This document shows, piece by piece, positions 17,275 to 27,755 of a stretch of DNA of 64,000 nt. Numbering within the stretch: position 1 is the stretch's first letter; the number at the start of each line of letters is the position of its first letter. This stretch comes from Escherichia coli (lineage in GTDB: Bacteria; Pseudomonadota; Gammaproteobacteria; Enterobacterales; Enterobacteriaceae), in the NCBI RefSeq assembly GCF_013315695.1, contig NZ_CP054353.1. One strand, 5' to 3'. Below the pieces are notes generated by a model that worked only from the letters and a program-made list of their open reading frames with translations, did no database searches and was not told where the DNA came from. The translations under genes and the position numbers were made by a program.

Positions 17275-18360
17275 ATGTTCAAGCGTCGTTATGTAACATT
17301 GCTTCCCCTTTTTGTGTTGCTTGCCGCCTGTAGCAGCAAGCCAAAACCTACTGAGACTGAAACGACCACCGGAACGCCGTCTGGCGGCTTCCTGCTTGAG
17401 CCGCAGCACAATGTGATGCAGATGGGCGGTGACTTCGCCAATAACCCGAATGCCCAGCAGTTCATCGACAAAATGGTGAACAAACACGGTTTCGATCGTC
17501 AGCAGTTGCAGGAAATTCTCTCCCAGGCGAAACGTCTGGATTCGGTACTGCGGCTGATGGATAACCAGGCACCAACCACATCGGTGAAACCGCCATCAGG
17601 TCCGAACGGCGCATGGCTGCGTTATCGCAAAAAATTTATTACGCCGGACAACGTGCAGAACGGTGTGGTTTTCTGGAATCAGTATGAAGATGCGTTGAAT
17701 CGCGCGTGGCAGGTGTATGGTGTACCGCCGGAAATTATCGTCGGGATTATCGGCGTTGAAACCCGCTGGGGGCGCGTGATGGGGAAAACTCGCATCCTCG
17801 ATGCGCTGGCAACGCTGTCATTTAACTACCCACGCCGCGCGGAGTATTTTTCTGGCGAGCTGGAAACCTTCCTGCTGATGGCGCGCGACGAGCAGGACGA
17901 TCCGCTCAATCTGAAAGGTTCCTTTGCCGGGGCGATGGGCTACGGTCAGTTTATGCCGTCGTCTTACAAACAATACGCGGTAGATTTCAGCGGCGACGGG
18001 CATATCAACCTGTGGGATCCGGTTGATGCCATTGGTAGTGTGGCGAACTATTTCAAAGCGCACGGCTGGGTGAAAGGTGATCAGGTTGCGGTGATGGCAA
18101 ACGGTCAGGCTCCAGGCTTGCCAAATGGCTTCAAAACCAAGTACAGCATTTCGCAGCTTGCCGCGGCAGGTTTAACGCCACAGCAGCCGCTGGGCAACCA
18201 TCAACAAGCCAGCCTGCTGCGTCTGGATGTTGGAACAGGTTACCAGTACTGGTACGGTCTGCCGAACTTCTACACCATTACCCGTTATAACCACAGCACC
18301 CATTACGCAATGGCGGTCTGGCAGTTAGGACAAGCCGTGGCGCTGGCGCGCGTGCAGTAA
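17275..18360 (+). CDS. mltB: Membrane-bound lytic murein transglycosylase B (lipoprotein)
   Basis: Lipoprotein signal ending in lipobox LLAAC at MFKRRYVTLLPLFVLLAACSS; start trimmed from the track ORF at 17170. Confidence 0.9.
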   Translation: MFKRRYVTLLPLFVLLAACSSKPKPTETETTTGTPSGGFLLEPQHNVMQMGGDFANNPNAQQFIDKMVNKHGFDRQQLQEILSQAKRLDSVLRLMDNQAPTTSVKPPSGPNGAWLRYRKKFITPDNVQNGVVFWNQYEDALNRAWQVYGVPPEIIVGIIGVETRWGRVMGKTRILDALATLSFNYPRRAEYFSGELETFLLMARDEQDDPLNLKGSFAGAMGYGQFMPSSYKQYAVDFSGDGHINLWDPVDAIGSVANYFKAHGWVKGDQVAVMANGQAPGLPNGFKTKYSISQLAAAGLTPQQPLGNHQQASLLRLDVGTGYQYWYGLPNFYTITRYNHSTHYAMAVWQLGQAVALARVQ

Positions 18361-23704: not shown

Positions 23705-23890
23705 ATGCTGATTCTGACTCGTCGAGTTGGTGAGACCCTCATGATTGGGGATGAGGTCACCGTGACAGTTTTAGGGGTAAAGGGCAACCAGGTACGTATT
23801 GGCGTAAATGCCCCGAAGGAAGTTTCTGTTCACCGTGAAGAGATCTACCAGCGTATCCAGGCTGAAAAATCCCAGCAGTCCAGTTACTAA
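23705..23890 (+). CDS. csrA: Carbon storage regulator CsrA (RNA-binding global regulator)
   Basis: 61-aa translation [48 protein letters not shown]... recognised as CsrA. Confidence 0.98.
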
Positions 23891-23923: not shown

Positions 23924-24205
23924 ACCCTCAAAATTTCTCCTTCACTCTATAGTCTTTTCGCTTTACTCCCGTTCATTCAACTTAAGTCTCCATTTTTTTG
24001 CATTACTGCTATCTGTCAGACCTCCGTTTTTCTGTTGATAAAACACTCTTTTTGACGTTTTTACAGACTAATTGAGCGTGAAGTGTGCAAACGATAAAAG
24101 TGTGGGAAAAATTGTTTGACTTATAAGTCTCAGAAAGTAATATGTGCGCCACGCAGCGACGATGAGCGATAAACAAGCTCTTCGAAGCACTCGTAAGAGG
24201 CGTGT

Positions 24206-24298
24206 GGTGAGGTGGCCGAGAGGCTGAAGGCGCTCCCCTGCTAAGGGAGTATGCGGTCAAAAGCTGCATCCGGGGTTCGAATCCCCGCCTCACCGCCA
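24206..24298 (+). tRNA. serV: tRNA-Ser (anticodon GCU), long variable arm
   Basis: 93-nt sequence GGTGAGGTGGCCGAG...GGTTCGAATCCCCGCCTCACCGCCA with anticodon loop CUGCUAA. Confidence 0.95.
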
Positions 24299-24301
24299 TT
24301 T

Positions 24302-24378
24302 GCATCCGTAGCTCAGCTGGATAGAGTACTCGGCTACGAACCGAGCGGTCGGAGGTTCGAATCCTCCCGGATGCACCA
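24302..24378 (+). tRNA. argV: tRNA-Arg (anticodon ACG)
   Basis: 77-nt GCATCCGTAGCTCAG...GGTTCGAATCCTCCCGGATGCACCA with anticodon ACG. Confidence 0.95.
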
Positions 24379-24440
24379 TCTCTTACTTGATATGGCTTTA
24401 GTAGCGGTATCAATATCAGCAGTAAAATAAATTTCCCGAT

Positions 24441-24517
24441 GCATCCGTAGCTCAGCTGGATAGAGTACTCGGCTACGAACCGAGCGGTCGGAGGTTCGAA
24501 TCCTCCCGGATGCACCA
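24441..24517 (+). tRNA. argY: tRNA-Arg (anticodon ACG), identical copy
   Basis: Identical 77-nt tRNA preceded by an identical 62-bp spacer. Confidence 0.95.
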
Positions 24518-24579
24518 TCTCTTACTTGATATGGCTTTAGTAGCGGTATCAATATCAGCAGTAAAATAAATTTCCCGAT

Positions 24580-24656
24580 GCATCCGTAGCTCAGCTGGAT
24601 AGAGTACTCGGCTACGAACCGAGCGGTCGGAGGTTCGAATCCTCCCGGATGCACCA
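24580..24656 (+). tRNA. argZ: tRNA-Arg (anticodon ACG), identical copy
   Basis: Identical 77-nt tRNA preceded by an identical 62-bp spacer. Confidence 0.95.
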
Positions 24657-24718
24657 TCTCTTACTTGATATGGCTTTAGTAGCGGTATCAATATCAGCAG
24701 TAAAATAAATTTCCCGAT

Positions 24719-24795
24719 GCATCCGTAGCTCAGCTGGATAGAGTACTCGGCTACGAACCGAGCGGTCGGAGGTTCGAATCCTCCCGGATGCACCA
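24719..24795 (+). tRNA. argQ: tRNA-Arg (anticodon ACG), identical copy
   Basis: Identical 77-nt tRNA preceded by an identical 62-bp spacer. Confidence 0.95.
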
Positions 24796-24888
24796 TATTC
24801 TCCGAAATCTTCAGCAATGAAGGTATCGAAGAGGTAGCGATATTAACCGCACGCCAGCAGCGGCCCGAAGGGCGAACGCCAGTGAGTC

Positions 24889-24910
24889 ATCCTCCCGGAT
24901 GCACCATATT
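24889..24910 (+). repeat. Direct repeat of the tRNA-Arg 3' end (atcctcccggatgcaccatatt), 93 bp downstream of argQ
   Basis: Exact 22-bp copy of the last 17 nt of argQ plus 5 nt of its 3' flank. Confidence 0.8.
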
Positions 24911-25053
24911 ATCCAAAAAATTTCCTTCAAAAATATCTCATTTCTAAATAACTACTTTATCCATTTCCTGAATTTTCTTCTCCTTCGCCATCAGCGACAA
25001 AATCAAGCAATTACGCTAAAGTAGCGTCATATTTTTCGACTTGCGAGAAGACC

Positions 25054-27682: not shown

Positions 27683-27755
27683 AAAAAGGCCACTCGTGAG
27701 TGGCCAAAATTTCATCTCTGAATTCAGGGATGATGATAACAAATGCGCGTCTTTC
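27683..27755 (-). ncRNA. micA: MicA (SraD) small RNA, Hfq-dependent repressor of ompA and other envelope mRNAs
   Basis: Reverse complement reads GAAAGACGCGCATTTGTTATCATCATCCCTGAATTCAGAGATGAAATTTTGGCCACTCACGAGTGGCCTTTTT, terminator hairpin included; sits in the gshA-luxS gap. Confidence 0.9.

Follow-up and report, generated by a model that had tools for sequence, protein, structure and literature searches.

In E. coli, tandem arrays of identical tRNA genes that differ by plus or minus one copy between strains are a general kind of variation that has already been described. The changes seen in glyVXY and other arrays of this kind have been credited to within-genome duplication (PMC4539685). For arginine, the only loci listed for tRNA-Arg2 in strain K-12 are the four genes argVYZQ, located after serV (PMC3378859). 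Deletion of argYZQ lowers the level of tRNA-Arg2 16.1-fold and duplication of the operon raises it 2.4-fold, and TadA-dependent editing is affected (PMC13170351). A second system of interest is RtT RNA (rttR), which corresponds to the 178-bp repeats of the tyrT-tyrV operon (Bosl and Kersten 1991, as cited in PMC3318445). In Klebsiella pneumoniae, four closely spaced loci labelled "RtT RNA" are expressed (PMC4147364).

The window analysed here is a stretch of 64,000 nucleotides of E. coli DNA, and the locus studied in it is the serV-argVYZQ stable-RNA operon. Megablast matches to this locus were obtained in 5,425 of 5,426 complete E. coli genomes. The annotated order in K-12 and the close relatives is alaS-csrA-tRNA-Ser-tRNA-Arg(x4)-yqaB-yqaA-gshA, and the genes are named serV-argV-argY-argZ-argQ in K-12 MG1655 (b2691-b2695). 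The chromosomal position is the same in K-12 and in the window, with csrA upstream and yqaB downstream, and in both of them serV is followed, after a gap of 3 bp, by four tRNA-Arg(ACG) genes with identical tRNA sequences. The window presents serV and then the tandem tRNA-Arg(ACG) genes in the interval from csrA to yqaB, so the statement in the original prediction that this is a known operon is borne out by the synteny with K-12.

Regarding the other RNA genes of the window, the MicA sRNA is located beside luxS (27684-27755, minus strand; 83.9 bits versus a gathering score of 41 in Rfam), being an expected neighbour here that is unrelated to the arg array, and a lone tRNA-Met(CAT) gene is located at 58596-58671 on the plus strand. 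The Rfam matches to Plastid-ycf2, Plastid-psbl-rps4, HPnc0260, and permuted tmRNA were rejected as tRNA-derived noise since they lie on or antisense to tRNA genes and score far below their gathering scores.

ARAGORN placed the four tRNA-Arg(ACG) genes on the plus strand, directly 3' of tRNA-Ser(GCU), with the anticodon acg at position 35 in all the copies and a CCA encoded in each of them. Each of them scored 67.1 bits with the Rfam tRNA model RF00005, whose gathering score is 29. String comparison revealed a single distinct 77-nt tRNA sequence and a single distinct 62-nt spacer sequence, and the identity with period 139 extends over 496 bp (24301-24796), that is, 3.57 units. Tandem Repeats Finder agrees with this result (period 139, 3.6 copies, 100% matches, 0% indels). 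The array is therefore a perfect head-to-tail repeat of a 139-bp unit with zero mismatches, a periodicity far beyond chance. Four identical genes, identical 62-bp spacers, and 139-bp units had been proposed from the sequence at exactly 24302-24795, and both the structure and the limits were confirmed by these analyses. The features of the locus are displayed in Table 1.

Table 1. Features of the serV-argVYZQ locus, in positions of the window; the last line gives positions in the K-12 locus (L001).
Feature	Position	Strand	Basis
csrA	23705-23890		translation
Promoter-like site, TTGACT, 16-nt spacer, TAATAT	24116..24143	+	consensus scan, 9/12 matches
serV, tRNA-Ser(GCU), first gene of the operon	24206..24298	+	ARAGORN; Rfam tRNA 56.8 bits; serV in K-12
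tRNA-Arg(ACG) copy 1, argV position, CCA encoded	24302..24378	+	ARAGORN, string comparison, Rfam
Spacer 1, 62 bp, variant v1	24379..24440	+	string comparison, relatives compared
Spacer hairpin TTGATATGGCTTTAGTAGCGGTATCAA	24387..24413, repeats 24526-24552, 24665-24691	+	MFE fold
tRNA-Arg(ACG) copy 2	24441..24517	+	ARAGORN, string comparison, Rfam
Spacer 2, 62 bp, v1, same as the K-12 argY-argZ spacer	24518..24579	+	sequence comparison
tRNA-Arg(ACG) copy 3	24580..24656	+	ARAGORN, string comparison, Rfam
Spacer 3, 62 bp, v1	24657..24718	+	string comparison, relatives compared
tRNA-Arg(ACG) copy 4	24719..24795	+	ARAGORN, string comparison, Rfam
X', degraded RtT-like module of 111 nt with a copied tRNA-Arg 3' end at its terminus	24796..24906	+	alignment, parse
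22-nt direct repeat (tRNA 3' end + TATT)	24889..24910 = 24778-24799	+	exact match
Terminator-like hairpin + T run, possible	25013..25037	+	consensus scan; 6-bp stem, 3 G-C pairs, weak
yqaB start codon	25054
K-12 X copies (L001)	1152-1284, 1425-1559, 1840-1973	minus

Concerning transcription, the promoter-like site is located about 60 nt upstream of serV and is followed by the G+C-rich segment GTGCGCC. Stable-RNA promoters carry a G+C-rich discriminator that is read as a sign of stringent control, and GTGCGCC could have this function here. Matches to the promoter and terminator consensus are no commoner than in shuffles, and the case for the promoter is made by its position and context. The same consensus scan found no promoter-like site inside the array. 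One upstream site and none within the array would fit a single polycistronic transcript, and this promoter would then drive a precursor containing tRNA-Ser(GCU) and the four tRNA-Arg(ACG). The terminator-like hairpin, placed 17 nt before the start codon of yqaB, could be the end of the tRNA transcript. The leader, from the promoter-like site to serV, also contains a window-private base at 24178, which is C in the window and T in K-12, MSB1_4I, AF14, and 1517k.

The differences with K-12 are found between and after the tRNA-Arg genes. The spacers measure 198/62/198 bp in K-12 versus 62/62/62 bp in the window, and the argY-argZ spacer of K-12 is identical to the window variant, v1. The 198-bp spacers are due to RtT-like modules located after argV and argZ. 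If the locus is parsed into 77-bp tRNA genes (T), spacers of 62-64 bp (S), and elements of 133-135 bp (X), the K-12 array reads T-X-S-T-S-T-X-S-T-X and the window reads T-S-T-S-T-S-T-X'. After the last gene, K-12 has a full module of 133 nt (argQ), whereas the window has a deleted module of 111 nt. The window allele is thus rare, compact, and homogenised, all the internal RtT-like modules being absent and all the spacers being v1. The perfect 139-bp array had been presented as a known operon; the operon is indeed known, but the K-12 reference itself is not a perfect array.

The nearest relatives date this state. Over positions 12000-36000 of the window, the five best genomes (MSB1_4I, AF14, OZ547117, OZ546911, and MS 21-1) are 99.9-100.0% identical, and all five have an array 2 bp longer than that of the window, in a non-homogenised form of 1103 bp. 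When MSB1_4I was compared base by base, 12 differences were counted in 24,001 bp and eight of them fall in spacers 1 and 3. Seven are in spacer 1 (24393, a 2-bp indel at 24411, 24414, 24418, 24427, and 24431) and one is in spacer 3 (24681, A in the window and G in the v4 spacer of the nearest relatives). The remaining four lie elsewhere, at positions 18011, 24178, 33034, and 33055. The relatives, two of which were read, carry v2 (64 bp), v1, and v4 versus the three v1 spacers of the window, and v2 differs from v1 by five substitutions and the 2-bp indel. Since eight of the 12 differences fall in the spacers, the homogenisation appears to be real and very recent, and gene conversion, unequal exchange, or the import of an allele that was already homogenised would account for it. 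The comparison among strains also showed that homogenised arrays are rare in E. coli and that the nearest relatives lack one.

Taken together, we consider it highly likely that this is the serV-argVYZQ operon with a rare compact allele whose spacers were recently homogenised through recombination between the tRNA blocks. The identical 77-bp tRNA genes would provide blocks of homology for RecA-type recombination between units, and this recombination would yield the gains, losses, and conversions of units that are found in E. coli. In the lineage of the window, spacer 1 would have been overwritten from v2 to v1 and spacer 3 changed by one base. For the immediate ancestor, a single conversion may be enough, with the adjacent unit as the donor for spacer 1, since the array of CREC-544, which has the same deleted terminal module, is v16 (64 bp), v1, and v1. 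We infer that the conversion tract in spacer 1 spans no less than 39 bp (24393-24431) and no more than about 216 bp, the upper limit being set by the identical tRNA genes on both sides. The homogenisation is compatible with intragenomic conversion, with deletion followed by re-duplication, and with acquisition from another strain.

The population data show how variable this array is. A query with the 77-nt tRNA sequence retrieved 21,500 copies in 5,425 genomes, with one to nine copies per genome, a median of 4, and a mean of about 3.96. Moreover, 21 E. coli loci taken from the ranked match lists, the nearest relatives, and K-12 were parsed, and their architectures stand as examples and not as proportions of the 5,426 genomes. 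These 21 loci contain two to six tRNA-Arg copies, at least 16 spacer variants, and one hybrid spacer of 102 bp, and X can be present or absent at every array position, including after the last gene. The original prediction that the copy number of such an array changes is therefore well supported, with one to nine copies in complete genomes and two to six in resolved loci. Two of the parsed loci mark the extremes of those read: E. coli 2014C-4135 (L009, 984-2434) has six tRNA-Arg copies, with a duplicated block of two units and its RtT-like modules, and the laboratory strain S17-1 (L006, 1853-2203) has two copies.

Homogenisation itself is found in other strains. The triple v1 array was read base by base in the window and in strain 1517k, a triple v4 array was found in DE17, and a triple v6 array with a period of 140 bp in AVS0756. 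Fully homogenised four-copy arrays have therefore arisen separately with at least three different spacer variants. According to identity and length signatures, the triple v1 array of the window is present in only two of the 5,426 genomes, 1517k and WW2, the array of WW2 being known by a query score equal to that of 1517k and not by reading. Signatures of this kind, extrapolated from the three arrays read, suggest that about 15 of the top 60 matches are fully homogenised four-copy arrays, and the estimate for all 5,426 genomes is likewise about 15.

The existence of 1517k brings in a possible, although rather doubtful, explanation, in which the homogenised array was imported as a short tract (up to about 850 bp) from a strain like 1517k or WW2. 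1517k belongs to a different lineage and has the identical tRNA-spacer array, and the score of WW2 matches it. Between 22.5 and 26.6 kb, the comparison of 1517k with the window gives 10 differing sites to the left of 23952 and nine from 24805 rightwards, and the only difference from 23952 to 24804 is the window-private base 24178. In addition, one import of 853 bp or less would cover spacers 1 and 3, whereas conversion needs one or two events. On the other hand, the spacer positions are the only informative sites in this tract and there is no independent foreign marker in it, and the window keeps the bases of its relatives at 24805 and 24808, adjoining the array. Furthermore, an import would move the homogenisation to an intragenomic process in the donor lineage and would not replace recombination between units as the mechanism.

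A technical origin was also considered and seems quite unlikely. In this case, the perfect identity would be an artefact of assembly or polishing, the true spacers would be 64/62/62 bp, and spacers 1 and 3 would have been built or corrected with spacer-2 reads. It is true that eight of the 12 differences between the window and its nearest relative are in a repeat, where assembly errors concentrate, and both the 139-bp unit and the 496-bp array exceed typical short reads. Nevertheless, the four copies are preserved, while repeat collapse usually loses copies, and the five substitutions and the 2-bp indel that separate v2 from v1 are enough for a unique placement of reads. The triple v1 array also occurs in two other independently assembled genomes, and triple v4 and v6 arrays are found elsewhere, so the homogenised state is biologically attainable.

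To place the array in a broader context, species-representative genomes were scanned for the serV-argV junction, which gave 120 loci from Citrobacter, Enterobacter, Klebsiella, Raoultella, Salmonella, Kosakonia, Erwinia, Pantoea, Serratia, and other genera. Four copies are the mode (47 of the 80 loci with a complete array). The 77-nt tRNA sequence of the window accounts for 309 of 318 copies in about 110 Enterobacterales species. Since purifying selection explains this invariance across species, the identity of the tRNA copies is uninformative about conversion, and only the spacers inform on recent events at the array. The identity of genes and spacers had been taken as a sign of a recent event, which holds for the spacers, given the v2, v1, and v4 spacers of the relatives, and does not hold for the tRNA copies.

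No pair of identical spacers was found in any of the 68 species with three or more copies, the best same-length pairs being 99% identical. Furthermore, a 64-bp variant at position 1 is common to K-12, O157:H7, another E. coli (L047), and Escherichia sp. E1V33 (L095), and ST131 has a near-identical 64-bp form at that position. Hence, the triple spacer identity of the window is a derived and recent state, and homogenisation is sporadic rather than continuous because positional spacer variants persist across lineages; the description of gene conversion as "ongoing" in the original prediction was overstated. It is highly improbable that the identity is kept by continuous concerted evolution, with frequent gene conversion in all E. 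coli: although the tRNA copies are always identical within genomes and some strains share spacer variants between positions, selection suffices for a tRNA that is also invariant between species, the position-1 variant and the lack of identical spacers across species speak against it, and only those approximately 15 of the top 60 matches, three of them read, look fully homogenised. As a separate observation, a record labelled Chryseobacterium sp. 18061 (L059) contains an enterobacterial serV-arg array with spacers of 194/194/196 bp, near-identical to that of a Citrobacter isolate of the same project (L079), so this assembly is probably mislabelled or contaminated.

The spacers also contain a hairpin that recurs at +139 and +278 in the window. 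In an alignment of 42 different short spacers, taken from many genera of Enterobacteriaceae, compensatory changes are present in all seven consensus pairs, the cells of the hairpin are paired in 89.5% versus 14-59% for slid controls, and none of 500 shuffles reaches the observed covariation score. At its 3' side there is a conserved segment, CAG-Y-AGTAAAG...TTTCCCGAT, leading into the next tRNA. The hairpin and this segment probably have a role in precursor processing: the hairpin and the A/U-rich 3' segment would guide cuts by RNase E and RNase P, which would be followed by 3' trimming. No description of the spacer hairpin was found in the searchable literature, where data on argVYZQ structure and processing are limited to dosage and aminoacylation.

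Regarding the RtT-like modules, X starts right after the CCA of the tRNA and terminates with a copy of the final 17-23 nt of the tRNA. The intact X aligns to the full Rfam RtT model (RF00391, positions 1-130) with 22.8-41.9 bits and E values down to 1.8e-5, the gathering score of RtT being 45. Blastn of rttR against the second K-12 module gave 84% identity over 45 nt (E 3.5e-8), and X and the K-12 rttR unit 3' of tyrV share a core and end in the 3' end of their own upstream tRNA. By this homology, X is an RtT-like element. In 16 loci from other species, no RtT match reached the gathering threshold, and for this reason homology is claimed and membership of the RtT family is not. The folding of the intact X is far better than that of shuffles (z-score -4.3), and that of X' less so (-2.6). 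The megablast query with X gave 9,639 matches in 5,251 of the 5,426 complete E. coli genomes; among the 12 matches listed, X never coincides with an annotated RefSeq feature. Long spacers with extra copies of the tRNA 3' end are also found in many other genera. The expressed "RtT RNA" loci of K. pneumoniae might be situated in its arg array.

The terminal module of the window, X', is a decayed version of this element. It has an internal deletion of 22 bp with respect to the 133-nt form of K-12 and ST131, gave no RtT match at E<=1 or E<=10 and so does not reach the gathering threshold of 45 bits, and keeps the 3' core and the position that relate it to RtT. X' is flanked on both sides by the 22-nt direct repeats. 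In genomes without the terminal module, the single-repeat form is found and the distance from the last tRNA to yqaB is 147 bp versus 280 bp. A further form was observed in YL03 (L012), where part of the terminal module has been lost between two GCACCA motifs and the distance to yqaB is 210 bp, not 280. Unlike the clean loss between 22-nt repeats, this deletion looks microhomology-mediated.

Two other readings of the modules were considered. A small peptide comparable to tpr in rttR was rejected because the sole ATG-led frame, ATGAAGGTATCGAAGAGGTAG, has six codons in the window and a different peptide of eight codons is found in the first K-12 module, so it is unconserved. The duplicated 3' end as a remnant of a prophage att site is disfavoured since the sequence between the two copies shows homology to rttR and is found again at several array positions and in many genera. 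Finally, it is unlikely, but worth stating, that the spacer hairpin with its covarying pairs and the RtT-like modules could be functional RNAs, for example processing guides or released small RNAs like rttR, and the homogenised strains without intact modules would then be natural knock-outs. The modules are widespread, fold far better than shuffles, and are unannotated. If this reading were true, the supply of tRNA-Arg2, the substrate load of TadA, or stress signalling would be altered in strains without intact modules.

The array matters for arginine decoding. In tRNA-Arg2, A34 is converted to inosine by TadA, and the tRNA reads CGU, CGC, and CGA. Because the array holds all the copies of the major arginine tRNA, the number of units in it determines the gene dose for the commonest Arg codons as well as the load that the main TadA substrate represents. 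The locus documents, within a short natural sequence, how tandem tRNA genes gain, lose, and convert units, and two thirds of the differences between the window and its nearest sequenced relatives in the 24 kb compared come from the recent event at this array. From a practical point of view, assemblies deserve checking at this array, and an RtT-like family goes unannotated there. Overall, this is ordinary biology and a clear example of gene-array reshuffling that does not overturn the current understanding; further work would perhaps be worthwhile only on the covarying hairpin of the spacers and on the RtT-like modules that lack annotation.

In comparison with glyVXY, the arg array also consists of identical tRNA genes placed head-to-tail in one operon; however, unlike glyVXY, it has optional RtT-like modules interleaved with the genes and a wider range of copies, from one to nine. 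Its modules resemble RtT/rttR in being located directly 3' of a tRNA and in ending in the tRNA 3'-terminal nucleotides, and both have the core AACGTTGC...GCAACGGCCCGAAGGGCGA...GAGTAATCC in common. They differ in length, with 133-135 nt in the arg modules versus 171-178 nt in the RtT units, and in their terminus, since the arg modules carry the 3' end of tRNA-Arg whereas the RtT units carry that of tRNA-Tyr.
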